IMG/VR virus record: IMGVR_UViG_3300005613_000021
Coordinates: 1-64,000 of that record
DNA length: 64,000 nt
Source of the DNA: a virus
Reading direction: 5' to 3' (one strand)
Each line of letters begins with the position of its first letter. Positions within the stretch are counted from its first letter, which is position 1. The position numbers were made by a program, and so were the translations under genes. Positions 8,130 through 52,332 of this stretch are shown piece by piece. A model generated the notes under the pieces. It saw nothing but the letters and a program-made list of their open reading frames with translations. It did not search any database and was not told the origin of the DNA.

Positions 8130-8146
8130 AGTGAACACCCTTTCAG

Positions 8147-30284: not shown

Positions 30285-31166
30285 ATGGCAGCAAATAGAG
30301 TTTATTTCGCTTCTCACGGTTTAGCTATTGACGGATCAACTGTTCAAGGTGCTCAAAGCGTAGGGATTAGCATGACATTTAACACCTTACAGGCTTTCCA
30401 GCTAGGTACTTTAAGTATTTACGACAATATCGTAACAGATGGAGAGGTTACTATTAGTGCTACTAAAAACTTAGATGGTAGTGCTCTTATGTTTGCTGGT
30501 GGTAATGTTGGTGATTATGGTACAACCACCTATGAGATTACAGTTGCCAGTCAAGATGATGAAGAAGGTCTTGATGGTACTGGAGCTACTAGTACTACTA
30601 TTACAGGCGCTTTTCTTTCTAGTCTCGGTTACAACTTTCCACTCGATGGCTGGTGTACCGAAGAAATTAGTTGGATTGCAGACAATAAACAGGTTGGAAC
30701 TAGCGGTATTTCTGCCCCATCCTCCACTACAGGTACTGCTGCTTTCCGACACCATGTAAGTTGGGATGGTGTTCACTCTGGTGATAATGTTACAAATATT
30801 AGCGTAAATACAGATTTTGCTCGTGAAGCACTATTCAAGTTAGGTCAGTTTAATCCTTATTATCGTTTTGCTAATTTTCCAATTGAAATTACTGTAGAAT
30901 TTACAGTTAACAATTACGAAATTGATCAAACATCACTTGATCTAACACAAGAAAGTTGTACTGGTACCAATTTTGGTAAAACAGATATTAGTGTTTATGT
31001 GTGTGATGCTAACGATAGTTCTGCTACTGCTAAGTATACAGTTACTGCTAGTGGTTGCGTATTAAGTTCAGTAAATCAAGAAGGTGGTGGTACTGATGGT
31101 GGTAATGCTACAACCACATACACCTATACTACCTACAACGATTTGTTTGTTACTACAGCTGCTTAA
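30285..31166 (+). CDS. Major tail tube protein (internally duplicated)
   Basis: T/G/S-rich beta protein with its own late motif and RBS; two similar halves. Confidence 0.65.
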   Translation: MAANRVYFASHGLAIDGSTVQGAQSVGISMTFNTLQAFQLGTLSIYDNIVTDGEVTISATKNLDGSALMFAGGNVGDYGTTTYEITVASQDDEEGLDGTGATSTTITGAFLSSLGYNFPLDGWCTEEISWIADNKQVGTSGISAPSSTTGTAAFRHHVSWDGVHSGDNVTNISVNTDFAREALFKLGQFNPYYRFANFPIEITVEFTVNNYEIDQTSLDLTQESCTGTNFGKTDISVYVCDANDSSATAKYTVTASGCVLSSVNQEGGGTDGGNATTTYTYTTYNDLFVTTAA

Positions 31167-31172: not shown

Positions 31173-31967
31173 ATGAGCTTTGTCTATCAGTTTGATAATG
31201 TTGGAGTAAAAATTGATGGAGCAGTACAGAAACTAGTTCAAAAGGTGTCGGTGAAAGCCGACACCGGACTAGAATTTGTAACATTACCAGATAGTGGAAC
31301 ACAGGAAGTATATAGTAAAAACAAAAATATTACTATTGATATTGAATATTTACATGACGGCACTTTTATAGATCCTACCATACCTCCTCTTTCTGATAGC
31401 TTAGGTTTTATAAATATTACCAGAAGTAGTATTCAAGATATTAGGTTTTCTGGATGTGTCTTAGTAGGTACAGCTAGTAGAATAGATGCCAATTCTAATT
31501 CTTGGGGAAAAAAAACGTATACATATATGGCTTTGTCTTATGATCATATAGACTCAACATTTAGTAGTACTACACCTATAACAGGAAGCGCAGAAGCAAG
31601 CAGGGCATGTTACACAGATGTTCTTGAAGAACAACAAATATCATTTGAGTCTTCTTGTTCTATAGAAAGAGAACTTGTATATTCTCCAACAAAAAAAAGA
31701 CCTTCTCACATTATTATAAAATATCCTATCGTATCTACTTCTAGTGTTAGTTTTTATGAAACAGGAGTAGACCTAAAATCAACAGGAGCTTTGAATTGTG
31801 ATACAGGAACATTGTCAACAGATGGTGCGGCAGGTATACCTAACGCATATTTGGACAATATAAGTGTAGAAGGAGCAACAGTAGATGGAGACCCTAAAAT
31901 TATCACCTATAGTTACAAATCGACACAAATAACAGGAGAATTAACTAGGATTATCGAAGTAACATAA
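31173..31967 (+). CDS. Tail tube paralog
   Basis: Both ends resemble 30285-31166. Confidence 0.5.
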   Translation: MSFVYQFDNVGVKIDGAVQKLVQKVSVKADTGLEFVTLPDSGTQEVYSKNKNITIDIEYLHDGTFIDPTIPPLSDSLGFINITRSSIQDIRFSGCVLVGTASRIDANSNSWGKKTYTYMALSYDHIDSTFSSTTPITGSAEASRACYTDVLEEQQISFESSCSIERELVYSPTKKRPSHIIIKYPIVSTSSVSFYETGVDLKSTGALNCDTGTLSTDGAAGIPNAYLDNISVEGATVDGDPKIITYSYKSTQITGELTRIIEVT

Positions 31968-31978: not shown

Positions 31979-33028
31979 GTGGAAAATTTCTTATACGATC
32001 TTAAATTTTATCGTATTATTAATGGATATTTTGAAATACAGATTAAAGATCAAAAATATAAAATAGTATATCCAGATAATAATAAAAAATACGAAGCAGA
32101 AAAACTATACGTATCTATACTGCAAGACTCTAGATTTGACACAGAATATCTGAATGATGTACAGCTACAAAAAATATTGCAGTACAATAATGTCTGGAAT
32201 TCTGATAAACAGGAAAAGATAAAAGAGATAGAACAAGCTATAGATAAGCTTAAAATTATTTTATATAAGGAATACTCTAAAAAAGATATAAGAGAAAGAA
32301 CCAAGGAAGAATTAGAAATCCTTAGAAAATATCAGAATGACTTATTATTAAAAAAACACAGCTTAGATTATCTAACTTTAAAATTTTTTGCCAATAATAT
32401 TAAAAATCAATATTTAATTTCTCAATGTGTTTTAACTCTTGATGATCAACCGGTTTTTGGTAATGATTATCAGAATATGGATCTTTCATTATTGAGACCC
32501 ATAGTGTCGGAAGTAGAAAAAAATCAAATTACAGCTTCTGATTTAAGGGCTATATGCACAGGAGACTTATGGAGAAGATATTTGTGTAGTAAAGATATTT
32601 TTGGTCCATCTATACATCTTAACGATGACCAAATAAACCTACTATCTCTGCAAAAAATGTATGATAATGTTAGAGGTCATCCAGACTGTCCAGAAGAAGA
32701 TGTCATTATGGATTCTGATGCTTTAGACGGATGGTTTTTAAATCAAAAAGATAAAGTTAAAGAAAGAAAGAAAAAAAACGAAGCTTTAAGCAAGGTTCGG
32801 GGTAAAGTAGGTAGTCATGATTTTATATACATTATGACTAATGGAGATAAGGAACAGATACAGGCTGTGGAAAGTATGAATGATTTGAGAGGAAAATCTC
32901 TTGTTAAATCAGTAAAAGAAACTGCTAAATCGGATAAAAAAACCAATTGGCGAGATGTTCCATACATTAAGCAAGAATTAAAATCTCAAGCATTCAAGAA
33001 TCAAAAACAAGGAGTACCTAACCAATGA
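31979..33028 (+). CDS. Hypothetical protein in the tail chaperone region
   Basis: GTG start; HPDCPEEDVI.D.DALDGW motif. Confidence 0.6.
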   Translation: MENFLYDLKFYRIINGYFEIQIKDQKYKIVYPDNNKKYEAEKLYVSILQDSRFDTEYLNDVQLQKILQYNNVWNSDKQEKIKEIEQAIDKLKIILYKEYSKKDIRERTKEELEILRKYQNDLLLKKHSLDYLTLKFFANNIKNQYLISQCVLTLDDQPVFGNDYQNMDLSLLRPIVSEVEKNQITASDLRAICTGDLWRRYLCSKDIFGPSIHLNDDQINLLSLQKMYDNVRGHPDCPEEDVIMDSDALDGWFLNQKDKVKERKKKNEALSKVRGKVGSHDFIYIMTNGDKEQIQAVESMNDLRGKSLVKSVKETAKSDKKTNWRDVPYIKQELKSQAFKNQKQGVPNQ

Positions 33029-33348
33029 AACAGGAAAGAGTTGTAGAATTAATAAAAGCTATAGAAAAAAGATTTCAAACAACAATGATAGGTTCTTTAG
33101 CCAGGATAGAAGATCATTTCGGTTTTATTTGGGGACATGATAAAGAAATGATATCTATAGAACAATCAGACAATAGAAATGTATGGCAAGATTTAAGAGA
33201 AGATATTTTAGATCACTGTAACTATCAAATGCGATCAACATTGACAGATTTAAGAAAATTTCTACAAGAAGAAAATAAAGATCAAGTTAAACTGACCAAA
33301 TCTTGTAAAATTGACACACAGTTAAGCAATAGTAACCAAGGAGAATAA
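33025..33348 (+). CDS. Hypothetical protein
   Basis: AGGAG RBS, ATGA overlap. Confidence 0.7.
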   Translation: MKQERVVELIKAIEKRFQTTMIGSLARIEDHFGFIWGHDKEMISIEQSDNRNVWQDLREDILDHCNYQMRSTLTDLRKFLQEENKDQVKLTKSCKIDTQLSNSNQGE

Positions 33349-33350
33349 TA

Positions 33351-34214
33351 ATGAGTGAAGATTCTTTTGTAATGGAAATTAATGACAAGAAGGTTGAATT
33401 TTTAGTAAAGTCACCATCTTTTAAAGACCAAAGAGAGGCACAGAAAGTTTATAATCAAGCATTCTCAGACGCCGTAAAATCTGGATGTATTGTTCGAGGA
33501 AGACTTGAAGATCTCTTAAAAGAGCAAGGTTTGTGGGACGATAAGAAGGAAATGAGACTTAATACTATTCAGCATGAATTATTAGGCCATGAACAAACTT
33601 TGTCTAAAGGCGGTATCAGCTTACAAAGAGCAAGAGGAATTGCTCTAGAAATGAGAAAATTACGAGATGATTTAAGAGAGCTAATTAGTTCTAGAACTAA
33701 TTTAGATAATAATACTGCAGAAGGACAAGCTGATAATGCTAGATTTAATTACTTAGTATCTGTGTGTTTGGTGTATTCAGAGAATAAGAAACCTTATTTT
33801 GTTAGTTATGAAGAATACTTAAATAAATCAGCAGATCCTGTTGCTATTAAAGCAGCACAAATTTTGGCATCTAGATTATATGGACTAGATGATAGTTATG
33901 AGAAAAATTTACCAGAAAATAAATTTCTTACAGAATATAAATTTGTTGATGAAAATTTAAGATTTATTAATAAGCAGGGTAGACTAACAGATTCGGAAGG
34001 TAGGCTTGTTGATGAAAATGGTAGATATATCAACGAAGATGGTGAATTTGTTGATAAAGACGGCAAAAGGGTAGATAGGTCTGGAGAATATGTCGTTGAA
34101 TTTAAACCATTCTTGGATGAGGATGGAAAACCTGTAAAGCTGGAAACAAAGAAAGTTGAAAATGAACAATCTGAAAAACCTAAAAAACAGGAGATACAAG
34201 ATACAGCAGAATAG
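33351..34214 (+). CDS. Tail assembly chaperone candidate with C-terminal (D/N)xxG repeats
   Basis: Immediately upstream of the TMP. Confidence 0.45.
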   Translation: MSEDSFVMEINDKKVEFLVKSPSFKDQREAQKVYNQAFSDAVKSGCIVRGRLEDLLKEQGLWDDKKEMRLNTIQHELLGHEQTLSKGGISLQRARGIALEMRKLRDDLRELISSRTNLDNNTAEGQADNARFNYLVSVCLVYSENKKPYFVSYEEYLNKSADPVAIKAAQILASRLYGLDDSYEKNLPENKFLTEYKFVDENLRFINKQGRLTDSEGRLVDENGRYINEDGEFVDKDGKRVDRSGEYVVEFKPFLDEDGKPVKLETKKVENEQSEKPKKQEIQDTAE

Positions 34215-34303: not shown

Positions 34304-37300
34304 ATGGCACAAGGCTATAATCTAACAGTACAATTGAATATTCAAGGTCCTAAAAACCTAAATAGCGTTGTTAATAACATTAACCAGAAACTACAAAATA
34401 TACAAGCTACTGTTAATGTTAAAACTTCCCCTCAAACAACGCAAGCCTTGAAAAACATAGCCAATGCTTCTAAAGGAGTTAAAAATAATGCCGATGATGC
34501 TGCTAATAGTATGGAAAAATTTGGCAAATCTGCTGGCCTCGCGATTAGGCGTTTTGGTGCCTTTACTGCTGCTACCGCTGGCTTCTATGCGGTTACTAGG
34601 GCTACGACACAATCGCTAGAAAAATTTATTGAGTATGATAGACAACTTACTAGAATTGCTCAGGTGACTGGAACAGCTAAAGAAAGCTTAGGCAATCTCT
34701 CTAATACTATTACTCAGCTTTCTACTAGTTTAGGTGCTAGTAGTTCTGAATTGGCTAGGGTTTCGGTAATTCTTTCACAAGCTGGACTTTCAGCTGAACA
34801 AACAAGACAGGCTTTGGAGGCGTTAGCTTTAACTACTTTGGCCCCAACTTTTAGCGATATTAATCAAACTGTCGAAGGTAGTATCGCTTTGATGAAACAG
34901 TTTGATATTAGCACCAAACAATTAGAAGCTTCTTTAGGCAGTATCAATGCTGTCGCTGGTCAGTTTGCTGTAGAAGCTGGTGATATTATTACAGCTATTC
35001 AGAGAACTGGTGGTGTATTTGCTGCTGCTAGTAATGGTGTGAGTCAGGGAGTAGATGCTCTTAACGAGTTTATTGCTGTTTTTACTAGCGTCAGAGCTAC
35101 TACTCGTGAAAGTGCTGAAACAATTGCTACTGGCTTAAGAACTATTTTTACCCGTATTCAAAGAGAAGATACTCTTGATGCTCTTAAGGCTTTTGGAATA
35201 GAACTGACTGATCTAGAAGGAAAATTTGTTGGGCCATTTCAAGCTATACAAAGATTATCAGAAGGGTTAAGAAGTTTAGATCCTAGAGATGTAAAGTTTA
35301 GTGGTCTAGTAGAAGAACTTGGTGGTTTCAGACAAGTTGGCAAAGTCATTCCTCTTATTCAACAATTTACCACAGCTCAACAAGCCCTTAATGCTGCACA
35401 ACAAGGGTCTGGATCTCTGGCTCAAGACGCCGCCATAGGTCAACAGTCTTTAGGTGTTCAAATATCTAAAGTACAACAAGAATTTGATGCTCTTATCAGG
35501 AGTATTGGTCAAACAGCAGAGTTTAGACAATTTATTCAACTTAGTCTTGATCTGGCTAGTGCATTAATACAAATAACAGATGCTGTTAAACCATTAATTC
35601 CAGCTCTTACTGCTTTAGGTGCGGTTGGACTTGCTAGAGGTATTCCTTCTATTGCTAGAGGATTCAAGAAGAGTATTGGAGCTACTGGATATAACAATGG
35701 AGGTGTTGTTACTGGTAGCTCTTTAAATTTTGCTGGTTCCTACAATAGTGGCGGTTTAATTGGAGGAAAGCCAGGAATTGATAAAAATATTATTCGTGCT
35801 TCTAAGGGTGAATACGTTATTCAAAAACCTGCAGTTGATGCTTTAGGAACGTCTTTTCTTGATAATTTACAAAAAAACAAACAAGTACCAGGGTATGTAA
35901 CAGGAGGCTTAGTAGACTATCCCTCATCAAGAAGATTTGTAAGAAGTAGTAACTTTACCTATGAGAAACCTCCAGGAGTTAGCATAACAGAATCCTTGCA
36001 AAACGAAACCCCATTAGCTTTTCAAAGATTTGATGCTGTTGATGTTGATATTAAAAATCAGGGATTTAATGGCAAGGCACTAGCTGAAAAAGTATCTAAC
36101 AAAAATTCTGGTAAAACATATTTGAGAGCATTAGAGAGTGGGGACTATAGAACCAGAGGTATTGCTTTTGAAAATGTATTATACGACACTAAACAAGTTT
36201 CTTATAAGCCAGAAGGACGTAATGCCACCTCAAGAATAGACAATATGAGAGGTTCAAATTTTGTAGAAATTAAAAGCGTACAAGAAAGAGTTCCTAATGA
36301 GGCAATATTAGATAAAACTATTGGTGCTATTTTTGCTTCTAGAGGTGGTATAGATGAAATGGTAATGCAAAGAGCTTCTAGGTCTGCAGTTACTAGTAAG
36401 AAAGATATTTTAGATGTTGGACAGGTTTCTGTGTTCTATGACACAACATCATTAAGAGACATTCAAAAAACAAAAAAAAACAAAGAGTTGACCTCATCTT
36501 TAAAATCTACAGCTGTTTCTAAAATTGGTAATATTAAATCTAGAAAATTGCCAAGAGCGTATACCGGAGGTAACCAAAAAGAAGGAGACATTAGAGTTAC
36601 CAGAGGTGAATATGTAATCAACAAACAGGCTGCAGAACAAATAGGAATAAATAGATTAAACGAACTTAACAACGCTCATAGAAACAATATGGCTGAAGAC
36701 CTACCTAAATTTCATACTGGTGGAGCAATTGGTTCTATTCCTGGATATAATACAGGTACTACAGTTGATAATGTTAGTCGGGATAGAGGTATCGGCAGTA
36801 CTATCGGCCTAGTGTTTGCGTTACAAGGTGCTGCTAGTCTATTCTCCACAAGTATAGAAGAGGCAGCTTCTCAAGGGGCCGCAGAAATGGGGGCTGGTAT
36901 ACAGGGTGCTGTTTCTGGTATTAATCTTGGTATTGTTGGTGGAGAAATTGCAGGCTTTATTCCAGGCTTGTCCAAATTTTCTGGAGGGATAGGATTAGCT
37001 ACCGCTGCTGTTGCTGGAACAGCTTCGGCATTTATACAATCTAAAAATGCTGCTATTGATTTTGCAAATAAATTATCTAAACAGAGAATAGAAGATGCAA
37101 CACAGAAAGTATCTTCTGCTCTTGACAAGCTAAGTAAAGAAGCAAATAATTTTAATGCTTTTAGACAAGCTGTTTCTGGAATAAGACAGTCCACTCAAGA
37201 AATTAGTTCTGTAAGAAGTAGACAAATTGAAAGTAATAGATTGGGTTTTGCTAATATCCCAGAATACTTATTGGGAACTACAGCCACAGGAGAAAGAACT

Positions 37301-40300
37301 CAAGAACAAATAGCTGTCGGAACATCCCAAGAGACGCTCTCTGCACAAAGATCATTAGTATTAGAAATGAGAGGATTTAATGCTTATTTAAGCACTTTGG
37401 GAGGATATTTAGGAGATAATCAACAAGCACAAGAAAATCTCGCTAATGCAATTAGAGGCATTAATGAAGTAAGAGCACAAGAAAGTGCTAGAGAGTTTGC
37501 GGGAGTGGCAGATTCAATTACTCAACTTGTAGAACAAAGACTAAAAGCAGGTATTGGTATTGATCAGATAATAGACAGTCAACAATTTAAATCTTTCAGC
37601 GAGGCTTTGGCAAGAGCAAATCCGCAAGTCGAAAAATTTATTTTAAATACACAAGCAAATACATCATTATCAGCAGAAGAAAAAAAACAAAGAATAGATA
37701 GAGTAGTAGCTCAAAGAGCAGAAATAGAAATTATACAAAGAACTGCAGCTTTTAGACAACAAATAGAGATAGATAATGCCGAAAAAATTGGTAGAAATTT
37801 AGAAACTATTTTGAGTAGAGTGTTCAATAGTTTTGAACAAATATTTAATCGTACTGCTTTAGATATAGGAAGATCTTTTGATATAATAAATACAGACATT
37901 GCTGCGTTGTCTGGTAACGCCTCTATAGGTCTTGGACAAGATAGAGGCTCTAATATTCTTTCTAATCCTTCAGCATATAGTAAACGAGAATTCAATTTGG
38001 TTGTCAGCGGACTTAAGCCCATACTGGGAGACCAGGCAGAAACAATAGCTGGCTTGGCTAGGGGTTCTGTTTCATTAGAAGCAGGAATAATATCTGCAAT
38101 AAATAGAGTTGTAAAAGAAAATCCACAAGCTACTGATACTGCTGTTGCAAGATTGGTAGGTCAAGAAATATCAAATCTGGTTACTGAATTAAATCTACCT
38201 CCAGATGTAGCAAGGACTTTATCAGATCAAATTAGCGCAGGTCTACAGAAATTAAGAAGTAAGGGTAAAGACCAAATAGGATTAGATTCCCAAGATGTCA
38301 GAGAAAGCGTATCTGGTTTCGCCAGCACAATAGACGCACTAAAGGGATCACTGAACACACTATTATCTGCACAAAAAATATATCAGTCAGGATTAGAACA
38401 ATATACCAAGGTATTAAATAATATTACAGGAATTTTAGCACAAAGAAATCAGTATGTTTCAAAGAGTTTGGAAATTCTTGCTCAGGGAGCCATTAATCTG
38501 GACGAAGCTTTTGGTAGGATATATAGTGCTAGAGATATTAGCATACAACAAGAGAAAAGCATAGAAAGACAAACATTTGGTCTGTCAGATCCTGATGAAA
38601 TTTTTAACAAAATTATAGATTTAAATTCTAGAAGACAATTATTACAAACTAATTTACAGTCAGCACAAGATCAGGGGCCAGCTAGTTTTGCTCAGTTTAG
38701 AGACCTTAGTGTTGAGTTAGTTAACACCAATGTCGAATTAAATAATATGCAGCAGGCTTTACAAACTCTTGCTGACAGTTCTAATGTAGCTCAAGCAGCA
38801 CTTTCTGAAATATCTAGAGTTCAACAACAAAGACAGCAGCAAGCTGGATTTTTGGAAAGTTTGGTTTCTTCTACTCCAGAACAGATAACAGCTCTTAATC
38901 AGGCATATGCTGACTTACAAAGACTTCTTTCTGGCCAAAGTAATACTATTTATACAAGCATAGAAGCTCAAAGAACATACGCCCAAACATTGAGACAAAC
39001 AAGAAGTACATTCCAAGCCCAAGAAGCTGCACAGGGAGTATTAGCACAAGAAAGAGGCAACGTAACGTCTTTAGTTAAAGAATTAGCTCCATTTCTTGGT
39101 TCTTCACAAGAAGCGAATAATTTAAGGGCAGAAGTTTTAGCAAGGCAAGTCAATCAATTGGGAATGTTAACTCCACAATTTTCTAGAATAATTGAGTCTA
39201 TTAGAAATCCTGAAGGAGATCCACAGCTACAAGAAGCTATTAGAGTTTATAGAGAGGCCGTTACTGAGCAGTCTAGGGCAAATCAATTACTTGGGCAGAT
39301 TCAAGCTATTAATGCTAGGATGGCTGAGCAAAATAGCGCACAAGCAGTGGTAAATGGTCTTGCTAAAACAGTTCTTACTGTGAACGTTAATAATGCTGGA
39401 GACATAGCAGCGGCCATTCAACCTGCTGTATTACCTCAACCAATAGTTCCTCAAGGAAGAGCTAGTGGCGGTGTTATATACGCAGCTGCTGGACAACAAG
39501 TAGAAATGAAGTCCAGAGGGACAGATACAGTACCGGCGATGTTAACACCTGGAGAATTTGTTGTTAATAGACAGGCAACAGCAAAGAACAGAGGATTATT
39601 AGAAAGTATTAATAGCGGCAAAACACAATACTATCAATATGGAGGTTTTGTAAGCAATCTGTTTGATGCAAATCAACCCAGAGGAAAAACAGAAAAAGTT
39701 CCTGCCCTAGAACAATGGCAACAATTAGCTCAGGGAGTCAGAACCGCACCTAAACTTTTTACTGCTAGTAGTTTTGTTAATTTTGACAGAGCCCAAAACA
39801 TTACAGTTGAAGACACTCTTCCTCAAACACAGGGCAATTCAACCTTAAATGATATACAAGACTTAAAAACTTTTATATATAAACAATTTAAAAATGATTC
39901 AAATATTCTTCCAGGACGCGTTTCTGATATAGTGGTAGAAAAAGCAGGAAAATTTGATGCTAACTTACCTAGTACTGTCGCTGATTTTGGTACAGCTAGC
40001 AAAATTGCAAAAGCAGCCATAGAAATAAATCCAAATATAAAAAGCATAAAGGATTTTCCTGACTTTGGTTTCGGCATAGAAAGAAAAGTAGACACAGCTT
40101 CTCCTTTAGTTAGGCAAATATCTCAAAAAACAAATATTCCTATACAAAATATTCTTGATTATATTGGGACCAGAAGTACAAGATATCCATATCTTGATAG
40201 CTTGATGCTTGGGGCCAGTCCAGAAGATTATATCAATATATATCCACAATCTAAAGGAGCCGCATCAGCAACAGAAGTGAGTGCTATTAGGAGGGGTTTG

Positions 40301-43300
40301 TATGGTGTTGATACAAGAAACACCAATCTTTCACCATCACAAAACTTAAACGAACAGACATATCCAGAATACAATAAAAAATTTAACAGCTTTAGATTGG
40401 TGAAACCTAATTTGAATGGTATTGATATAAATTCTTCTCCACCTACTAATGCGTTTGCAGATTCTTGGAATATTACTGGCAAGAACTATGGTCTATATTC
40501 ATCTATAGGTCCGATACAAGCGGAACCATTTGGACCAAAGGTGACCTCTAAACCAAGAGATTTTATTAGACGTGGAAGCATAAGTATTAGCGGTAATGGT
40601 TCTAGCGGTGAAGTATTTGAAGGAACAAGAGTGATTGGAGATGATTTATTAAAAAGAAGTAAAAATATCTACGATAGATATATTGACACCAAAGAAATAT
40701 TAAAAAATGGAGTCGCAGAAGATCCTGAAGTAGAATCATTTATAAAAGAGTTAGAGTCCTTGTATAGTGGAGAAACACCATTTTCACCATTAAATGCTAA
40801 ATTTTTTAATGATAAAAGAACTCCTATTATGGGTTTAAGTTCCTCTGTCTATAGAAGTTTTAACAGATTGGCGCAAGAAGACAAATTATCGGCTGCGATT
40901 CGTTGGCCTCTTGGTTTGAATGGTAATTTTAAAACACTTGGCTTAATAAGAAACGAAGAACAAATAGATCGCTTGAAATCTCAAACAGATTTAATTAAAA
41001 AAGAGATAGCCGATGAAGAAAAGTCTAAATTTTCTATAGTCAATAAAACTGCTAAAATACCTTTTAAGGCTGTTACCCCAATAGATAAAAGACTGGCTAA
41101 TTTTCCTGCTTTTACAAATATTGATTTTAGCGTTCCATATAAAGAATATTCCGGTAATCTGTATGACGAAATACAAGGTTTATATGACGATAAAAAAAAT
41201 AAAGCGATAATTCCTAATTATGAAAATTATAGAAGTTTCTTAAAGGGTGACTCCAATAATGATCTGCTATATGGAAATTTACAGGCTTACTTAGGCAATA
41301 TATTTAATAACTTAAATAATAATAGATCCGAAATCTCAGAATATTTATTTTCAGATAATGCCAAGCTAAATACTAAATTGTTTAGGCTTGCCTCTGTAGG
41401 ATATAAAGGATCATCTAAGCCTAACATTTATTCTTTTGGTACAAAAGGATTATTTACTAGAGACTTTGCTGCTACAGATAATTTAGCTAGAGACATCGAT
41501 AAAAAGAAAGACAAATTATTAAAACCAGCACCATTTGAAAAACCTATAGAACAGAAAGCTGAAGACGAATTTGCGGTAAAACAATATAATGATATGTTTA
41601 CAGATACTAGGGGTTATTTTGGTAGAGCCCCAAGTTTCAGGCAATATGTTAGAACTGGTGGAGCAGGTATAGCTAGAGATATCCAAGAAGCAAAAAAATA
41701 TTCTCAAGGTCTATCTGGACAATTCTTAGTTAGTACAAATAATGGCAATCTTGCATTGCCAATTAGAGCTATGTCATCAGGTTTTTCTGAAGCATTTGCT
41801 AGTGTTGGAACAGGCAAACTTTCTCCTTGGACTGATAGAATTGGAAGAGTAAATACGGCAGCTGCTGCTGCAAGCTTTGGTCAGTCATATTGGCTGCAGA
41901 ATTTTGCTGGTGCTGAGGGCGTTGACCTAGAACAACAATCAGACCCTAATGTTGTGGAAAGAGCACAGAGGGCTATCGAAGGAAATCCTAAAACTCCAAC
42001 TACTATCAAAGAGTGGTTTGATTTGTATATGGATCCATATCTGAAATATAACCAAAGAGGCATTAGAACTAAAGGATTATCTAATATATATCGCAGCATG
42101 GTGGATCAGTCATATTATGAAAAGAAGAGGAGAGGACCCGTCCCTAGTGCTCAAGAAGCGGCAGCATATTTTACTAATCTTGGATCATGGTATGATGGAA
42201 TCAGAAGGTGGCCTGGACAAGATGGAATAGTTGAAGATCTTGATGGAGAAAAAGATATCAAAGAAAGAGCAAGATATCTTTATAGGAATAGTAAAAACTT
42301 TACAGGGGGTCTTTATAATACAGCAAATAGATCACATTTAAGTTTGGGTGGAGGTATTTATGGGGGTTTGCCTACATTCAACCAGATATCGCTGATTAAT
42401 GGAGTTAATCCACGAATAATGCAGCAGGTGATGAATGAGGGTGTTGCTGCACAGGCACAGTTACTATCGCGGGGAGGAGAAGTTGACCCACTATATCTTG
42501 CAGAAGGTGGGCCGGTATTACTTGATAAGGCATTAAAACAACAGGCCATATCTCAACAGAAACAAACATATAACCCATTTGCTGGTCCGTCTTCTGAAGA
42601 CAGATATAGAGAAGAATTACTACTCCAAAGACAAAGACGAGAAGAACAAATAGCAGAGTTAAGAGCATCTACTCCATTTACTAAAGCAATACAAAGAGCA
42701 CCTAAAGATGCATTTGGCAACACAACAATAGCACCAAATGCTACTATTAATGATAGTATTAGAAATATACCGGGATTTGGTTTAGACATTCTAGGAACGT
42801 TTCCAGGAATTGTAGGATCATTGGTTACTGGACCAGGAGCAGCAGCAGAACAACTTTCTAATGCTGTAACTGGTGGAGATAGTCAGTTTATGTCTGACAT
42901 GTTTAGATATAATTTAAGCACAGGTACTGCACTAGGACCAAGATTAGCATCTGGTATTTATTCTGAAGATATGATGTCAATGCCAGGATCTTATATTGCT
43001 GGAGGTAGTCAAGAAGATATAGTATCTCAAATGCAGCCAGCATCAAGGGTGGCGGCTACCGCTTTAGACTTTGTAAGTCCAGATATTGGGGATATCCCTA
43101 GAGGTATTAAAACTGCTAGTGCTTTAGGTTCTCTTTTAGGTTTTGTAAAGAAAGCGCCGATACCCAAAATTACTATGCCAGACAGACTTGGTGGATATGT
43201 TGCTGATTTAGAATCTGTCTTAAAAACCAATAAAGGCTTATCATTAGAAGATCAGACTTCTTTGGCTCAAGATATATTTACTCTTAGAAGTAAAATGAAA

Positions 43301-46174
43301 ACAAGAGGTAGAGAGGGAGCCAGGGGGGCTGATCCAGAAATAGATGCTATTTTAAAGAAATATGAAACAAAGCCAGAAATTGAAGCTGGAGATGTTGGAG
43401 GGGCTGGAAAAACACCAGCTATTGATCCACAAGAACTTACTTCAACAGGCAGATACAAGTTAGACACAACAATAGCAGCCCCCAAAAAAGAAATGGCAGC
43501 TCAAACTGGCAAAGCAGAACCACCAGCAGAAATTAAAGAAATTCTTGATCAAGGTAGGCAATTTTACGAATCAAGGAATACAACACCCACAAAAGACACA
43601 TCATTAAACGATGCCATTGTAACACAAAGGGCTGAGGCAATGAGTCCTGAGCTAGAAGAATCAATGCGTCTCGGCCAAGAATTTGCCAAAGAAAGGGCAG
43701 CAAGGCAAACTGAGAATGCTAGCATAGTAGCCGAGGATGCGAATAAAGCAGCCGCACTTAAACAGCAAAGAGAGGAACAAGCTGCACTGAAACAGAAACA
43801 AGATGCGTCAGCAGCTGCACTTAAACAACAAACAGACAGGGAACTATTGCAGTTTGCTAAAGAGCAAAAAATTAACCCTAGAATTCCTCCTGGAGTTGAT
43901 AAAAGAAGATTTGATACTTGGTACAGAGACAGAAATAATCCAGCATATAAAGACGTTAAGAATGCTGTCATTAATGATGTCCTGGCTAGAGCAGAGTTCA
44001 GACAAGCACAAATGGGCGAAGTGCCGAATAGAATACCTGGAGTAGATAGAGATTTATTTGAATATGACTTTGGTGATGTTGTTAAAATAGGTCCTGAACG
44101 TACTGGAACTGTAGGTCTTCAAGCTAGTGCAAATGAGAAAGAATATGCAAAAATTGCTAAAATAATAGCTGAAAAGCAGGGTAGGCCTTTTACTATTATT
44201 CAAGCTAGAGATATGATTGCTGAATCGGTAGGTTTATTGCATTCTGATATGCCTGATTTAGAGCAGTTAGCGAAAAGGGGATTATTCCCATCAAGAGCAG
44301 AAGTTGGAACAACATTGGCTCCTAACCAAGAGCTAGGCAAGCCATTACCATCAAGTCCGCTAGAGGTGTTTGAGCAGATGTTTCCTGAATATAAAGCCAC
44401 AGGAGGAATAGTACAACAACCAAAATATTTAGCTACAGGTGGATCTACCAGTGTGGCTATGACACCAAGAGGAACCGACACTGTTCCAGCGATGCTTACT
44501 CCTGGCGAGTTTGTGGTGAATAGAGAATCCGCCAAAAATAACATGGGTCTGCTTAAGGCTATTAATCGTAGAAAGGGTGGTATAACTCCTACTTATTTAC
44601 AACAGGGTGGAGAATTAACAAAAGATCAGCAAAATTTAGTAAATATGATGGGAATTCCACAATTTAGACTAGCAGACGGAATTAATCCTAGACTACCAGA
44701 AGAAGTAGCTATGGCCAAAAACATAGCTAGCAATACACTCAAACAAGAAAATACTCAAAGAGAAATGATGGGAGATACCCGTTTAGCTGCTCCTCAAATA
44801 GAAGAAATAGTTAGTAATTTCTTTAATAACGCAAACTTATCTCCAAACAACGAATACGGAGAAGTTGGTTTAGACAGCTTAATTGGTGGTTCTAGATCTG
44901 CTATTGGTAGAGAACTAGATATGCAAACAGTATTTAAATACGGAATAAGTAATCTTAGCGATGCCCTATCTACAAGTAGAGGTAGTCCTTTAGGAGAAGT
45001 ATTATCTGATCAAGACAGATTCACAAGAGATCAGATTCAAGCTTTGTTGGAACGTACAGGAATTATGAAAAAATATGTTGCTCCAACATTTAATCTAAAA
45101 AATGGAGGAAAGGTAGAATATTTAAAAGGCGGAGGACAGCTAGTAGATTACAGTCCTAAGGGTACTGATACTGTTCCTGCTATGCTAACTCCTGGCGAGT
45201 TTGTTGTTAATCGTGAAGCAACTCAAAAGAATCTTGGACTATTAAAAGCTATCAATAAAAGTAGTGGTGGTGTGGTTCGTAACGGTGTGTTATATGCTGC
45301 TAACGGAGGTCCAACAATAGATGATACTCGTGCTGAAATTGCTGGACAAAGAGCTTTTGATAATTTGTGGAGCGCTATAACTTCATTAGCTTCGGATATT
45401 GCAGGATTAATGATACCATCTACAGAAGTAACACCAGCCGCCACGGCCACCTCAAGAACAGAAGAGATGATCAGACCATCTGTACAATCTACAGACAATG
45501 ATTGTTGTGATAGGATCATATCAGCTTTAAGAGAAGGTTCTGTGTCAGATATTCAGCCCCCACCTATGGATTTTGGTATGGTTAATCAACCACAGACACC
45601 TATGACAGACGATGGCACTTCTACCAGTATGTCATCTATTGCTTCTGATATTTTTTCAGCAATAAGAGAGAGTTTTTCTCAAACTTCAATCTCAACATCA
45701 ACACCAACAACACCAGTCGAATCTGCTACAAAAGCAGATGCTCCCAGTATTGATTTTAGTCCATTTACCCAAAGTGTAGCAGATTTTAGCAGTGCATCCG
45801 CACCACTAACTTCTGCTATACAAACACTGTCACAAGTCGATTTTGGTGTAATAAACAATGGAGCAGCTAGCCTATTATCTAGTTCTATAGCTCTTGGAGG
45901 ATCTTTTGGTAGATTTAACGAGTCTGTCAATCAATTTTCGCAAAAAACTAATGATTTAATTTCGGCTATAAATGGAATGAGCTTAGATGGTACTATTACT
46001 GTGGGAGGCAATATTTCTGTGCAACCAATGACTGTAAACATTGCTGGATTAGAAGCAATCGAAGCAAGATTACAGGGTTTTGGTGAGTATATAAGCCAAG
46101 CCTTGGCAGCAGGCTTAGCTCAAGCTAATCCAGGATTTGATACGTCCGCAATTACAGTGAGCACTAGTATTTAA
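34304..46174 (+). CDS. Giant tape measure protein (3956 aa) with repeated GEFV/GEYV modules and cargo segments
   Basis: N-terminal TP901-type TMP core (RESAETIATGLRTIFTRI), TM segments, position after tube and chaperones. Confidence 0.9.
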   Translation: MAQGYNLTVQLNIQGPKNLNSVVNNINQKLQNIQATVNVKTSPQTTQALKNIANASKGVKNNADDAANSMEKFGKSAGLAIRRFGAFTAATAGFYAVTRATTQSLEKFIEYDRQLTRIAQVTGTAKESLGNLSNTITQLSTSLGASSSELARVSVILSQAGLSAEQTRQALEALALTTLAPTFSDINQTVEGSIALMKQFDISTKQLEASLGSINAVAGQFAVEAGDIITAIQRTGGVFAAASNGVSQGVDALNEFIAVFTSVRATTRESAETIATGLRTIFTRIQREDTLDALKAFGIELTDLEGKFVGPFQAIQRLSEGLRSLDPRDVKFSGLVEELGGFRQVGKVIPLIQQFTTAQQALNAAQQGSGSLAQDAAIGQQSLGVQISKVQQEFDALIRSIGQTAEFRQFIQLSLDLASALIQITDAVKPLIPALTALGAVGLARGIPSIARGFKKSIGATGYNNGGVVTGSSLNFAGSYNSGGLIGGKPGIDKNIIRASKGEYVIQKPAVDALGTSFLDNLQKNKQVPGYVTGGLVDYPSSRRFVRSSNFTYEKPPGVSITESLQNETPLAFQRFDAVDVDIKNQGFNGKALAEKVSNKNSGKTYLRALESGDYRTRGIAFENVLYDTKQVSYKPEGRNATSRIDNMRGSNFVEIKSVQERVPNEAILDKTIGAIFASRGGIDEMVMQRASRSAVTSKKDILDVGQVSVFYDTTSLRDIQKTKKNKELTSSLKSTAVSKIGNIKSRKLPRAYTGGNQKEGDIRVTRGEYVINKQAAEQIGINRLNELNNAHRNNMAEDLPKFHTGGAIGSIPGYNTGTTVDNVSRDRGIGSTIGLVFALQGAASLFSTSIEEAASQGAAEMGAGIQGAVSGINLGIVGGEIAGFIPGLSKFSGGIGLATAAVAGTASAFIQSKNAAIDFANKLSKQRIEDATQKVSSALDKLSKEANNFNAFRQAVSGIRQSTQEISSVRSRQIESNRLGFANIPEYLLGTTATGERTQEQIAVGTSQETLSAQRSLVLEMRGFNAYLSTLGGYLGDNQQAQENLANAIRGINEVRAQESAREFAGVADSITQLVEQRLKAGIGIDQIIDSQQFKSFSEALARANPQVEKFILNTQANTSLSAEEKKQRIDRVVAQRAEIEIIQRTAAFRQQIEIDNAEKIGRNLETILSRVFNSFEQIFNRTALDIGRSFDIINTDIAALSGNASIGLGQDRGSNILSNPSAYSKREFNLVVSGLKPILGDQAETIAGLARGSVSLEAGIISAINRVVKENPQATDTAVARLVGQEISNLVTELNLPPDVARTLSDQISAGLQKLRSKGKDQIGLDSQDVRESVSGFASTIDALKGSLNTLLSAQKIYQSGLEQYTKVLNNITGILAQRNQYVSKSLEILAQGAINLDEAFGRIYSARDISIQQEKSIERQTFGLSDPDEIFNKIIDLNSRRQLLQTNLQSAQDQGPASFAQFRDLSVELVNTNVELNNMQQALQTLADSSNVAQAALSEISRVQQQRQQQAGFLESLVSSTPEQITALNQAYADLQRLLSGQSNTIYTSIEAQRTYAQTLRQTRSTFQAQEAAQGVLAQERGNVTSLVKELAPFLGSSQEANNLRAEVLARQVNQLGMLTPQFSRIIESIRNPEGDPQLQEAIRVYREAVTEQSRANQLLGQIQAINARMAEQNSAQAVVNGLAKTVLTVNVNNAGDIAAAIQPAVLPQPIVPQGRASGGVIYAAAGQQVEMKSRGTDTVPAMLTPGEFVVNRQATAKNRGLLESINSGKTQYYQYGGFVSNLFDANQPRGKTEKVPALEQWQQLAQGVRTAPKLFTASSFVNFDRAQNITVEDTLPQTQGNSTLNDIQDLKTFIYKQFKNDSNILPGRVSDIVVEKAGKFDANLPSTVADFGTASKIAKAAIEINPNIKSIKDFPDFGFGIERKVDTASPLVRQISQKTNIPIQNILDYIGTRSTRYPYLDSLMLGASPEDYINIYPQSKGAASATEVSAIRRGLYGVDTRNTNLSPSQNLNEQTYPEYNKKFNSFRLVKPNLNGIDINSSPPTNAFADSWNITGKNYGLYSSIGPIQAEPFGPKVTSKPRDFIRRGSISISGNGSSGEVFEGTRVIGDDLLKRSKNIYDRYIDTKEILKNGVAEDPEVESFIKELESLYSGETPFSPLNAKFFNDKRTPIMGLSSSVYRSFNRLAQEDKLSAAIRWPLGLNGNFKTLGLIRNEEQIDRLKSQTDLIKKEIADEEKSKFSIVNKTAKIPFKAVTPIDKRLANFPAFTNIDFSVPYKEYSGNLYDEIQGLYDDKKNKAIIPNYENYRSFLKGDSNNDLLYGNLQAYLGNIFNNLNNNRSEISEYLFSDNAKLNTKLFRLASVGYKGSSKPNIYSFGTKGLFTRDFAATDNLARDIDKKKDKLLKPAPFEKPIEQKAEDEFAVKQYNDMFTDTRGYFGRAPSFRQYVRTGGAGIARDIQEAKKYSQGLSGQFLVSTNNGNLALPIRAMSSGFSEAFASVGTGKLSPWTDRIGRVNTAAAAASFGQSYWLQNFAGAEGVDLEQQSDPNVVERAQRAIEGNPKTPTTIKEWFDLYMDPYLKYNQRGIRTKGLSNIYRSMVDQSYYEKKRRGPVPSAQEAAAYFTNLGSWYDGIRRWPGQDGIVEDLDGEKDIKERARYLYRNSKNFTGGLYNTANRSHLSLGGGIYGGLPTFNQISLINGVNPRIMQQVMNEGVAAQAQLLSRGGEVDPLYLAEGGPVLLDKALKQQAISQQKQTYNPFAGPSSEDRYREELLLQRQRREEQIAELRASTPFTKAIQRAPKDAFGNTTIAPNATINDSIRNIPGFGLDILGTFPGIVGSLVTGPGAAAEQLSNAVTGGDSQFMSDMFRYNLSTGTALGPRLASGIYSEDMMSMPGSYIAGGSQEDIVSQMQPASRVAATALDFVSPDIGDIPRGIKTASALGSLLGFVKKAPIPKITMPDRLGGYVADLESVLKTNKGLSLEDQTSLAQDIFTLRSKMKTRGREGARGADPEIDAILKKYETKPEIEAGDVGGAGKTPAIDPQELTSTGRYKLDTTIAAPKKEMAAQTGKAEPPAEIKEILDQGRQFYESRNTTPTKDTSLNDAIVTQRAEAMSPELEESMRLGQEFAKERAARQTENASIVAEDANKAAALKQQREEQAALKQKQDASAAALKQQTDRELLQFAKEQKINPRIPPGVDKRRFDTWYRDRNNPAYKDVKNAVINDVLARAEFRQAQMGEVPNRIPGVDRDLFEYDFGDVVKIGPERTGTVGLQASANEKEYAKIAKIIAEKQGRPFTIIQARDMIAESVGLLHSDMPDLEQLAKRGLFPSRAEVGTTLAPNQELGKPLPSSPLEVFEQMFPEYKATGGIVQQPKYLATGGSTSVAMTPRGTDTVPAMLTPGEFVVNRESAKNNMGLLKAINRRKGGITPTYLQQGGELTKDQQNLVNMMGIPQFRLADGINPRLPEEVAMAKNIASNTLKQENTQREMMGDTRLAAPQIEEIVSNFFNNANLSPNNEYGEVGLDSLIGGSRSAIGRELDMQTVFKYGISNLSDALSTSRGSPLGEVLSDQDRFTRDQIQALLERTGIMKKYVAPTFNLKNGGKVEYLKGGGQLVDYSPKGTDTVPAMLTPGEFVVNREATQKNLGLLKAINKSSGGVVRNGVLYAANGGPTIDDTRAEIAGQRAFDNLWSAITSLASDIAGLMIPSTEVTPAATATSRTEEMIRPSVQSTDNDCCDRIISALREGSVSDIQPPPMDFGMVNQPQTPMTDDGTSTSMSSIASDIFSAIRESFSQTSISTSTPTTPVESATKADAPSIDFSPFTQSVADFSSASAPLTSAIQTLSQVDFGVINNGAASLLSSSIALGGSFGRFNESVNQFSQKTNDLISAINGMSLDGTITVGGNISVQPMTVNIAGLEAIEARLQGFGEYISQALAAGLAQANPGFDTSAITVSTSI

Positions 46175-50829: not shown

Positions 50830-52332
50830 ATGATATCTGGTATAGGAGGCATATCTTTTGTGCCTCATGCAATGATAGATATTTCTCCTCAGTATTTTTA
50901 TTATGGCGATGATGTTATAGGAGGATTTTTAAACTTAGAAATACAGGGTACACATCATGCTGAAGATAGTGATTCATATACTTCTTTTATAGAATCTGTT
51001 GTTGGTCTTATCGATAGTTGTGCCACTATTAATATGTCAAATGAATGTACTCCTGAAAGCACTATAGATAAATTAGATAATTCTGTTGGAGTTGTGAGAG
51101 ATGCTAGAGTTAGTCCTGTTGGGGGATTAGATATAAATTACAACATAATTGTAGAATGTTCAAAGGATAGTGACAAAAACAAATTAATAGTGAATAATAG
51201 TGATATCGATTTTGAAACCATACTTGGAAATGATATGATAGTTAGAGCATATTCTGAATCAATAGTGGTCAATTATGCTGATACTAGCACTTTCTCTATT
51301 AATGATAAAAAACTAGTCAAAAATGCTGGCAAGTTTACTATACAAATAGAAGTGTCTGCTTATGATAATGATCAGTGCGATACTAATGATTTAAATTTTG
51401 AATTACTTATGCAATTTTTAGAAAATAGAGTAGATACTATTGTTACTAGTCCTAGTGAGGTTAATATTAATATACCTTCTACTTTTGTTACTTGTGCTAC
51501 GAATATAAAAAAAACAACAAAGAAAACTAGCGCTAGTATCGATTTTGACTTACATATACTTCCTCAAAACGATACCAAGGCTATTGTAGAATTTAGTGAA
51601 ACTTTTGAATCTGATCAGCTAAAAGGAGGTAAAAGTATTACAAAAATAAAAGGATCTATATTAGGAGTTGATAGTAGCCAGACTGTTTTATATCCAAACT
51701 ATGATGGTTATGATAATGCTTCAGCCGCTTATAATGATATTAGGGAATATTTTGTTAGTGGTATTACAGATCTTTTTGTATCTAATTGTTCCAATGGTAG
51801 TGGAACAGGTATGCCCAATATAGGAGATACATGCTATCAATTGACCAGTACTAGGTTGTCTGAATTTCCATCAGCCAATAAAATAGATTTTGAAATGACC
51901 TATAAAGATACAGAGACTTGTGATTTATTGGGTTATAAAATATCTAGTCAATATGAAGAAAGACCTTCCGTAAGTGGTAGGGCAGAACATTTTGCTCCTG
52001 GTAGACAGGCTAGTTATAAACCTTTAGTATATGCTAGTCAAGCTACATCAGCCCCTAAATATAAATTAACAATAAAAGGAGAATTGCCTAGCAGTTGTTT
52101 ACAACAATCTGTTGGTAAAAGCAATACAGTGCTTAAAAATAATAGTTTGTTTGCTAATAGTGTCAACATGGACAGTCTTATTACAGAATTAAAGTCAGCT
52201 GTTAGCGGAGAGCTTTCTGATCAAAAAGATATTTGGTCATTAACTGGTGGAAATATAATGCAAATTAATAAAGTAGAAACAGAAGGTAGATACACATATA
52301 GTATTACAGAGGAATACATAGAATGTCAATAG
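50830..52332 (+). CDS. Tail tip/baseplate protein candidate
   Basis: Same size as the previous gene; shared C...GYKI motif. Confidence 0.45.
   Translation: MISGIGGISFVPHAMIDISPQYFYYGDDVIGGFLNLEIQGTHHAEDSDSYTSFIESVVGLIDSCATINMSNECTPESTIDKLDNSVGVVRDARVSPVGGLDINYNIIVECSKDSDKNKLIVNNSDIDFETILGNDMIVRAYSESIVVNYADTSTFSINDKKLVKNAGKFTIQIEVSAYDNDQCDTNDLNFELLMQFLENRVDTIVTSPSEVNINIPSTFVTCATNIKKTTKKTSASIDFDLHILPQNDTKAIVEFSETFESDQLKGGKSITKIKGSILGVDSSQTVLYPNYDGYDNASAAYNDIREYFVSGITDLFVSNCSNGSGTGMPNIGDTCYQLTSTRLSEFPSANKIDFEMTYKDTETCDLLGYKISSQYEERPSVSGRAEHFAPGRQASYKPLVYASQATSAPKYKLTIKGELPSSCLQQSVGKSNTVLKNNSLFANSVNMDSLITELKSAVSGELSDQKDIWSLTGGNIMQINKVETEGRYTYSITEEYIECQ

Follow-up and report, generated by a model that had tools for sequence, protein, structure and literature searches.

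Tape measure proteins (TMPs) of phages are usually treated as rulers, sometimes with a cell-wall hydrolase. In phage lambda, the TMP gpH undergoes a single established cleavage into gpH* and gpHC, and the protein is ejected and forms a trans-envelope conduit; both the cut site and its catalyst are still unmapped (PMC12617516). T5 pb2 is likewise cut into pb2* and pb2C, at a site disputed between two reports (PMC10038345, PMC11937520), and cleavage of the JBD30 TMP was predicted rather than measured in its paper. TM4 gp17 contains the Mt3 peptidoglycan hydrolase motif, a dispensable cargo that aids infection and adds to tail length, and deletion of a 114-aa embedded motif from the TM4 TMP yields tails about 20 nm shorter (PMC1796659). 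P23-45 has an extremely long tail and a 5,002-aa TMP, gp96, that includes a fused, active virion RNA polymerase; the enzyme is thought to pass through the tail and act early in infection (PMC10770324).

The TMP described here, P0001, is encoded in a 64,000-nucleotide window (positions 1 to 64,000 of IMG/VR record IMGVR_UViG_3300005613_000021), in which the ORF at 34304..46174 on the plus strand is one uninterrupted frame of 3,956 aa. PhageMin_Tail (PF10145) matches aa 134-328 with 78.6 bits against a gathering cut-off of 33.2, and 11 PHROG TMP families match the N-terminus, down to E 1e-33. Hydrophobic windows lie at aa 410-452 and aa 828-914, and the composition of aa 936-1711 favours helix. 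P0001 is a genuine single-chain TMP of an uncultured phage. Upstream, two ORFs (30285-31166 and 31173-31967) give weak, sub-threshold Hcp/TssD matches and are weak Hcp-like tube candidates; the ORFs at 31979-34214, also upstream, are chaperone candidates. Downstream lie large fibre- or hub-like genes, and a 1,037-aa ORF there has its match in a PHROG of baseplate or fibre connectors. No gene for a sheath was recognised, which is not proof of absence, and the phage probably has a long non-contractile tail. None of 50,697 phage records contained a cultured relative of the TMP core, and the host clue consists of only three MAG contigs with inconsistent taxonomies. Five copies of a conserved element, hereafter the joint, and one half joint, together spanning aa 456-3674, divide P0001 as follows:

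34304..46174, plus strand: whole TMP gene, P0001 (single ORF, PF10145 and PHROG TMP matches)
34304..35668, plus strand: segment A, aa 1-455, conserved TMP core ending in the hydrophobic stretch aa 410-452 (PhageMin_Tail at aa 134-328)
35669..35923, plus strand: joint m1, aa 456-540, degenerate, with YNNGG, YNSGG, GEYV and YVTGG (motifs)
35924..36535, plus strand: segment B, aa 541-744, PD-(D/E)xK nuclease-like cassette by weak resemblance (motif, AF2 model)
36536..36739, plus strand: joint m2, aa 745-812, degenerate, with YTGG, GEYV and FHTGG (motifs)
36740..39436, plus strand: segment C, aa 813-1711, Gly-rich hydrophobic aa 828-914, then about 780 helix-rich aa (composition, conservation)
39437..39661, plus strand: joint m3, aa 1712-1786, canonical, RASGG .. 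GTDTVPAMLTPGEFVVNR .. YQYGG (motifs, profiles)
39662..42451, plus strand: segment D, aa 1787-2716, orphan, aromatic-rich, non-ruler-like cassette (conservation, composition)
42452..42523, plus strand: half joint, aa 2717-2740, LSRGG..YLAEGG, lacking the GEFV core between its outer GG motifs
42524..44374, plus strand: segment E, aa 2741-3357, orphan, with a hydrophobic stretch at aa 2822-2848 and charged, low-complexity parts (hydrophobicity)
44375..44626, plus strand: joint m4, aa 3358-3441, canonical (motifs)
44627..45076, plus strand: segment F, aa 3442-3591, small variable cassette (conservation)
45077..45325, plus strand: joint m5, aa 3592-3674, canonical (motifs)
45326..46171, plus strand: segment G, aa 3675-3956, C-terminal piece (cluster 4 of C-terminal segments)

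The sequence-only reading had described repeated GEFV modules, bracketed by xxGG motifs, that cut the protein into segments. Three exact copies of the 18-aa GTDTVPAMLTPGEFVVNR indeed occur at aa 1739, 3390 and 3620 (nt 39518-39571, 44471-44524 and 45161-45214), together with degenerate GEYV copies at aa 502 (nt 35807) and aa 768 (nt 36605); every xxGG motif that it had listed was found where it placed them, and its segment sizes are correct. DNA identity among the three GTDTVPAMLTPGEFVVNR copies is just 76-82%, with 31 of the 35 pairwise differences at third codon positions. The joint is therefore under selection, as the peptides are identical and the divergence is synonymous. P0001 contains 18 motifs of the form [YF]x1-3GG, against 5.0 +/- 2.3 expected from 1,000 shuffles (maximum 13); a GE[FY]V is found no more than 40 aa away from 12 of them. 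The complete joint extends over 60-80 aa and takes the form GG..[YF]AxxG..DTVPAMLTPGEFVVN[KR]xA..L..IN..[YF]SxGGxV..YxAxGGxV, in which D, T, V, P, A, L, P, G, E, F and V are each at least 90% conserved across 125 joint copies. As for the LSRGG/YLAEGG pair (aa 2721-2736), described there as module-free, the equivalent position in the relative P0004 is a complete module; from this comparison, the pair reads as a joint with its GEFV core deleted.

Structure prediction of the roughly 50-aa module, which the sequence-only reading had put forward as a check, was run with AF2 on the joint monomer and the 125-sequence alignment and returned a single helix at pLDDT 62 with no compact fold, and the idea of a compact autoprotease was rejected on this ground. 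A likeness of DTVPAMLTPGEFVV to the LexA/S24 motif GDSMxP..GD, seen by eye only, was dropped because its Asp and Thr positions are not kept in lambda, m1 and m2. The joint is not represented in Pfam, where Tape_meas_lam_C covers gpH 627-701 only; NCBIfam TIGR01541 spans the joint in lambda and has no match to P0001. A literature search found no description of the joint or of multi-joint TMPs.

Lambda gpH does carry a FATGG..GEFV..YATGG module, as the sequence-only reading had stated and a check of the gpH sequence confirmed (gpH 731-785; the GEFV Glu is E755), and the module of P0001 matches this same element. Against PDB sequences, profile A2 hits lambda gpH 732-789 with E 3e-6 and Douge gp16 twice with E 2e-13; for joint m3, profiles A1 and A2 match Douge gp16 and lambda gpH; and a single-target search of gpH with the module HMM gives E 8.9e-10. 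The region of joint m1 matches TMP PHROGs at their own joint positions. TM4 gp17 has one joint, which occupies 702-766 and immediately precedes the Mt3 region, Douge gp16 has two, and Gordonia phage Nymphadora gp17 has 3-4, of which three are strong and one weak. The whole 2,142 aa of Nymphadora gp17 would correspond to a predicted tail of about 320-340 nm. A tblastn search with the joint matched 124 phage records, and among the 40 matches listed the annotated feature is a TMP with three exceptions: two records lack annotation, and in one the feature is a 'D-alanyl-D-alanine carboxypeptidase family protein'. Judged by these matches, the joint is an old TMP element that was multiplied in the giant family described below to 2-8 or more copies. 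The virion maps of lambda and Douge do not resolve the joint region (PMC12617516, PMC13033339).

P0001 shares with lambda gpH the joint itself (FATGG..PAxxxxxGEFV..helix..YATGG, aa 731-789) and a hydrophobic or glycine-rich stretch adjoining it. Distinct from P0001, gpH is 853 aa long, lacks cassettes and belongs to core family TMP_2; the lambda-type joint is single and lies about 70-120 aa from the C-terminus, whereas the five and a half joints of P0001 run from aa 456 to 3674, and lambda cleavage is established, whereas any cleavage of P0001 is hypothetical. TM4 gp17, Douge gp16 and Nymphadora gp17 resemble P0001 in placing joints within the TMP beside inserted non-ruler sequence, but these actinobacteriophage TMPs are 1,200-2,150 aa long with 1-4 joints and other core families, and their known cargo is a cell-wall hydrolase, without hypervariable multi-kilobase cargo. 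P23-45 gp96 is also a giant TMP with an active enzyme; however, its enzyme is N-terminal, no swappable cassettes have been described in it and the module HMM finds no GEFV joint, so the likeness is best taken as a functional analogy only. T5 pb2 has a comparable order of hydrophobic stretch, cleavage zone and C-terminal piece kept in the tip, and the sequence around its proposed cut sites (..PR/AEGG..GTEV/VTP.., slashes marking the cuts) resembles the start of a joint by eye. Homology of T5 pb2C to the joint was nevertheless rejected, and pb2C is not used as evidence, because the HMM gives no match and hhalign a probability of 0.3%.

The multi-joint architecture characterises a whole family. 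It recurs in at least 978 proteins of 2,175-6,900 aa from independent sources (JGI, ENA, Logan and NCBI), on contigs up to 240 kb; each of 120 giant relatives (2,500-6,800 aa) and each of 80 IMG/VR loci contains 2-8 joints, and in complete family members of about 1,900-2,150 aa there are 1-3 joints and no distal cargo. The proposal that the phage has multiplied its module thus extends from five copies and a half copy in P0001 to the whole family, in which longer TMPs have more joints (r = 0.48). The 713 inter-joint segments fall into 102 clusters, with 53 singletons, and 52% of long-HSP boundaries lie within joints +/-15 aa versus 15% expected. An alignment of relatives had been suggested to reveal whether segments are swapped while modules are kept, and this is the pattern obtained. 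On the conservation map, the core and the roughly 900-aa helical segment are shared, and aa 1800-3300 are nearly unique. The larger relatives have a conserved segment of ~1,000 aa, cluster 1.

Specifically, segment A is present in 120 of 120 relatives at about 50-78% identity, and segment C, with 48% AELQKR, 8% P+G and a weak SMC-like coiled-coil match, is conserved in about 117 of 120 and is likely the ruler. Segment D is common to only 1-7 of the 120 relatives and has 10.8% aromatic residues; it gave no Pfam, PHROG or Atlas lead and has no relatives outside giant TMPs, HMMER against 1.84 billion representatives returning only another giant TMP and two fragments. Segment E is common to 0-2 of the 120 and has no family match in Pfam or PHROG, and segment F is common to about 25. 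Segment G falls in cluster 4 of the C-terminal segments, common to the closest relatives, and is presumed to be the tail-tip-binding end by analogy with the solved TMP C-termini of lambda, T5, Douge and JBD30 (PMC12617516, PMC10038345, PMC13033339, PMC11445458).

Segment B, present in about 14 of the 120 relatives, had been called a nuclease of about 215 aa. In a 15-sequence alignment of aa 536-752 built from full-length relatives, E623, D646, E655 and K657 are invariant in the order E..D..ExK. The AF2 model (pLDDT 73.8, pTM 0.66) has an alpha/beta core, and its top VIA-align rows are mostly PD-(D/E)xK nucleases (FAN1 VRR_NUC, Card1, CdiA-CT, FokI and Hjc), all weak at Z <=4.0. Foldseek of the model against the PDB returned nothing, segment B has no Pfam or PHROG match, and no stand-alone relatives were found. 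The nuclease call accordingly stands as to the invariant motif and the fold class that dominates the structural matches, less so as to the strength of those matches, and segment B can be described as nuclease-like, with a model that weakly resembles PD-(D/E)xK nucleases.

We propose that P0001 combines a tail ruler with cargo cassettes whose borders are marked by a conserved junction element, a reading to which we give a probability of roughly 0.55. It would consist of an ordinary TMP scaffold, comprising the PhageMin_Tail core, the hydrophobic stretches, the ~900-aa helical ruler and the C-terminal tip-binding end, which exchangeable cassettes interrupt, each bounded by a 60-80-aa joint. We infer that the whole chain is loaded in the tail lumen, largely unfolded or extended, and that it would be expelled C-terminus first, before the DNA. 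The cassettes, including the predicted and probably active PD-(D/E)xK nuclease, would next fold and exert their activity in the envelope or cytoplasm of the host, either tethered to or freed from the conduit-forming scaffold. The joints themselves may be insertion-tolerant junction or docking elements; post-assembly cutting at some of them, as in lambda, is possible, and no evidence requires cutting at every joint. By precedent, the entire chain probably counts in tail length, which would be about 0.6 um here; the implication of the sequence-only reading that only the core sets tail length runs contrary to TM4 (PMC1796659) and P23-45 (PMC10770324).

The five joints separate a conserved scaffold from swappable inserts, so that finished proteins may travel in the tail and enter the host. 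Insertions of cargo are marked by the same junction element in lambda, in TM4 and on up to an uncultured family of very large size, in whose giant members kilobases of hypervariable sequence would ride inside the tail. This suggests that phages may quite generally use the tail lumen to deliver proteins that act early, nucleases among them. Cultured systems for the joint are available in lambda, TM4 and Gordonia phage Nymphadora.

A true polyprotein, in which every joint served as a processing unit and either cut itself at its xxGG motifs or was cut there by a protease of phage or host, once the tail was assembled or on ejection, would yield seven polypeptides of about 50, 23, 100, 105, 68, 17 and 30 kDa acting as independent effectors in the cell. 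The lambda joint (aa 731-789) directly follows the glycine-rich zone where gpH is cut, and a cut at about aa 720-737 gives a gpH* of 78.5-80 kDa, agreeing with the reported ~79 kDa (PMC12617516), which makes the joint a concrete candidate for the gpH maturation site. Additionally, both proposed T5 cut sites (R1127 and V1148) lie in the joint-like stretch noticed by eye (PMC10038345, PMC11937520), TM4 gp17 is reported to be probably processed (PMC1796659), joints delimit independently swapped units, and the half joint retains its GG motifs despite the loss of its core. However, no phage, lambda included (PMC12617516), has a cleavage mapped to a joint, and the T5 region has no joint homology detectable by HMM or hhalign. 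A unit of 60-80 aa with four GG motifs and an invariant 17-aa core far exceeds the needs of a protease site, and its AF2 model has no autoprotease-like fold. No protease gene was recognised in the ORFs near the TMP, and no JAB or NlpC/P60 (lambda-K-like) domain in the 96.5-kb record, which is 66% complete. Moreover, gpHC of lambda is retained in the tail tip and does not act as an effector (PMC12617516), and the TMP gene is split at a joint in none of the 80 loci. Processing at every joint is thus rather unlikely. If joints were truly processed, such phages would fire a programmable train of separate proteins (nuclease, effectors) before their DNA, and the same element would explain the 50-year-old unmapped cleavage of gpH to gpH*.

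We consider it quite unlikely that all 3,956 aa only set a tail of about 0.6 um and have no cargo function, with the inserts as freely drifting spacer and the joints as repeated structural or chaperone-docking sites that keep a long trimer or hexamer in register. Such a plain ruler is consistent with the scaling of tail length by the whole TMP, embedded domains included, in TM4 (PMC1796659) and P23-45 (PMC10770324), with the rise of joint number with length and with the orphan segments D and E, which have no recognisable domain. Yet those embedded domains of TM4 and P23-45 are active enzymes, the catalytic-type E..D..ExK of segment B is invariant in 15 diverged homologues, and its model is a predicted alpha/beta domain, not a helix. 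SNase, EF-hand and SHD1 domains occur in relatives, segment D is aromatic-rich, unlike a helical ruler, and a spacer is not expected to swap as discrete blocks bounded at joints.

Fusion of several genes by misassembly or an ORF miscall, raised solely for the extreme length and with nothing else in its support, is highly improbable given the uninterrupted frame and the recurrence of the architecture in the at least 978 proteins and 80 IMG/VR loci. At the level of DNA, a 39-nt stretch in the core of joint m5 is 97% identical to a marine single-virus genome.

A single uninterrupted frame (34304-46174, plus strand) encodes the tape measure protein (TMP) of 3,956 aa, in a linear IMG/VR record of 96.5 kb with an estimated completeness of 66%. 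An 18-aa peptide, GTDTVPAMLTPGEFVVNR, occurs in three exact copies that start at aa 1739, 3390 and 3620 and agree in nucleotide position with the sequence-only reading, and two degenerate GEYV copies lie at aa 502 and aa 768. The DNA of the three exact copies shows a mutual identity of only 76-82%, with 31 of the 35 pairwise differences in third codon positions; such diverged codons under identical peptides therefore indicate that selection maintains the peptide and that the copies did not arise by recent duplication. Additionally, the TMP contains 18 [YF]x1-3GG motifs, compared with 5.0 ± 2.3 in shuffled sequence, 12 of them within 40 aa of GE[FY]V, and every xxGG motif listed in that reading is present where it was placed. 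The five copies (m1-m5) align as one element of 60-80 aa, hereafter the joint. The supposed module-free pair at aa 2721-2736 aligns with a full joint of a relative (P0004) and is, by this alignment, a joint with its outer GG motifs kept and its core lost. A 39-nt stretch inside the core of m5 (window 45167-45205) shows a 97% match to 'Marine virus AG-345-O18' (MH319758), a single amplified seawater virus, and a megablast of the full TMP gene against the phage collection gave no other match; near-identical joint DNA thus occurs in a record that is otherwise unrelated.

The joint consensus, drawn from 125 copies in 80 related loci, reads in order GGx[IV], [YF]Ax(x)G, about 10 residues, DTVPAMLTPGEFV[VI]N[KR]xA, L..[ILM]N, [YF][SNA]xGGxV and Y[FLY]AxGGxV, and among these copies conservation reaches 90% or more at each of the positions D, T, V, P, A, L, P, G, E, F and V. 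Against all PDB chain sequences, the joint profile matches only two proteins, TMP gp16 of mycobacteriophage Douge (two copies, E 2e-13) and lambda gpH at residues 732-789 (E 3e-6). The lambda module named in the sequence-only reading is indeed present in the gene H sequence, with FATGG, PAGIVHRGEFV, a helix and YATGG at aa 731-785. Pfam has no model for the joint; its Tape_meas_lam_C is confined to gpH 627-701, and the lambda-specific NCBIfam TIGR01541, which spans the joint in lambda, does not match this TMP. A tblastn search with the joint matches 124 records in a set of 50,697 from phages, among them those of Gordonia, Brevundimonas, Nodularia, Ralstonia and Burkholderia. In the 40 matches listed, the annotated feature at the matched position is a TMP in all but three: one is a 'D-alanyl-D-alanine carboxypeptidase family protein', and two records carry no annotation. 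Neither the lambda nor the Douge virion map resolves the joint-bearing part of the TMP (PMC12617516, PMC13033339), and the AF2 joint monomer (125-sequence alignment, pLDDT 62) has its sole helix over RQATAKNRGLLESIN; the joint therefore does not stand out as a self-contained domain.

The joints divide the TMP into segments A to G, the first four of which are as follows.

Segments A to D of the TMP
aa 1-455, segment A: PF10145 core with a hydrophobic stretch at its end
aa 536-752, segment B: nuclease-like, alpha/beta AF2 model
aa 813-1711, segment C: Gly-rich hydrophobic start, then helix-favouring sequence
aa 1787-2716, segment D: aromatic-rich, ruler-unlike orphan

Segment B, previously called a nuclease of about 215 aa, has no Pfam or PHROG match, and a search for stand-alone relatives found none. 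E623, D646, E655 and K657 are invariant in a 15-sequence alignment, and the AF2 model (pLDDT 73.8, pTM 0.66) yields a VIA-align list of mostly PD-(D/E)xK nucleases (FAN1 VRR_NUC, Card1, CdiA-CT, FokI, Hjc and cap-snatching endonucleases), yet with Z of at most 4.0 and with no Foldseek match. Taken together, these results make a PD-(D/E)xK-like nuclease likely but not secure. For segment D, a HMMER search of 1.84 billion representatives yields no matches beyond one further giant TMP and two fragments, and the Atlas gave no lead; segments E, F and G have no Pfam or PHROG family matches. SNase, EF-hand or SHD1 domains are found in some relatives.

A whole-length search recovers at least 978 proteins of 2,175-6,900 aa. 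In the best 120 of these (2,512-6,832 aa; JGI, ENA, Logan and NCBI, contigs up to 240 kb), joints are present in 120 of 120, at 2-8 per protein with a mean of 5, and the multi-joint pattern is repeated in 80 IMG/VR loci. Conservation along the TMP is uneven.

TMP regions and the number of the best 120 relatives that share them
aa 1-500: all
aa 540-800: about 30
aa 850-1780: about 117
aa 1800-3300: 0-7
aa 3450-3600: about 25
C-terminus: about 15

Cut at their joints, the proteins give 713 segments that fall into 102 clusters, 53 of them singletons, in many different orders. For HSPs spanning 150 aa or more, the block boundaries lie inside joints ±15 aa in 52% of cases versus 15% expected, in a nominal test on relatives that are not independent. 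This segment mosaicism and the core-less joint therefore bear out the proposal that segments are swapped while modules are kept, and uniformly helical, collinear segments were not seen among the relatives. Shorter complete members (about 1,900-2,150 aa, contigs of 96-160 kb; P0139, P0190, P0210, P0212 and similar) carry 1-3 joints near the N-terminal core, after which roughly 1,000-1,500 aa up to the C-terminus are free of joints. The giants therefore appear to have gained joint-bounded segments tip-proximal of the ruler, and the shorter members resemble a simple precursor that was extended into the giants by distal cassettes, that is, exchangeable segments. The best-supported reading is that the TMP is both ruler and carrier, a conserved scaffold with exchangeable cassettes between old junction elements.

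Cultured phages have the same element. TM4 gp17 (2185-5874 of its record) contains a full joint at 702-766, immediately ahead of the Mt3 hydrolase motif region (W853), and a second, partial joint at 876-901. Gordonia phage Nymphadora gp17 (1064-7492 of its record; 2,142 aa) contains three strong joints at about 949-1014, 1622-1683 and 1949-2027 and a weak fourth at 1264-1319, with GEEV or GEFM as the core instead of GEFV. Both multi-joint TMPs are usable as test systems.

Lambda represents a known kind of TMP maturation, in which gpH, once the tail is assembled, loses some 14 kDa of its C-terminus 'from the glycine-rich region', the cut being placed no more precisely than that, and gpHC (about 690-853, with 690-817 not resolved) remains in the tip together with gpI (PMC12617516). 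Cutting anywhere at about aa 720-737, up to the joint's first GG, would give a gpH* of 78.5-80 kDa, a value that fits the reported size without proving the site. The cut in T5 pb2 has been placed after R1127 (PMC10038345) or, alternatively, after V1148 ± 1 (Boulanger 2008, cited via PMC11937520); the two sites fall within ..PR|AEGGMMYPG..GTEV|VTPMVP.., which is joint-like by eye. At the pb2 C-terminus (17125-17484 of the T5 record), the reported 'zinc carboxypeptidase' pattern PGVSYQMGEHGTEVVTPMVPMKA overlaps a stretch that by eye resembles the joint's GG..GTDTVPAML portion and includes both disputed cut positions; we rejected this region as a joint homologue, the similarity being by eye only and not statistically significant. 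Cleavage of the JBD30 TMP is a prediction only. Full polyprotein processing at the joints is an improbable account of the present TMP: no protease is found among the ORFs neighbouring it and no JAB or NlpC/P60 domain in the 66% complete record, the TMP gene is split at a joint in 0 of 80 loci, and the joint, with its four GG motifs and invariant core, far exceeds what a protease site needs. This size suggests, from sequence, that the joint may instead bind a conserved partner or form an inter-chain structure.

As a ruler and carrier, the TMP would be a variant of the known TMPs with embedded enzymes, TM4 (Mt3 motif) and P23-45 gp96. In TM4, tails measure 180 nm instead of 200 nm once the embedded 114-aa Mt3 region is deleted, the shortening that a ruler predicts, and the phage remains viable but is less effective at infecting stationary-phase cells (PMC1796659). 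P23-45 gp96 (5,002 aa) contains an active virion RNA polymerase, and the phage has an extremely long tail (PMC10770324); the module HMM finds no joints in gp96. Judged by TM4 and P23-45, the cassettes here are probably located in the tail lumen and count towards tail length. At a rise of roughly 1.5-1.6 Å per residue, the predicted tail would be about 0.6 μm if the cassettes count and about 0.2-0.26 μm if only A, C and G do. The scaffold with its cassettes would be expelled C-terminus first, before the DNA.

Upstream of the TMP, two adjacent ORFs (30285-31166, 293 aa; 31173-31967, 264 aa) each have a weak, sub-threshold Hcp/TssD match and may be paralogous tail tube proteins. Downstream, a 1,940-aa protein (52323-58145) with a cadherin-domain match of 34.9 bits (cut-off 28.8) is probably a fibre or adhesin. 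Window positions 1-10000 differ from the structural module, with a GC content of 40-47% and negative skew versus 30-38% and positive skew further on, and with numerous short minus-strand ORFs; tRNA-Met and tRNA-Glu lie at 502-770 on the minus strand.
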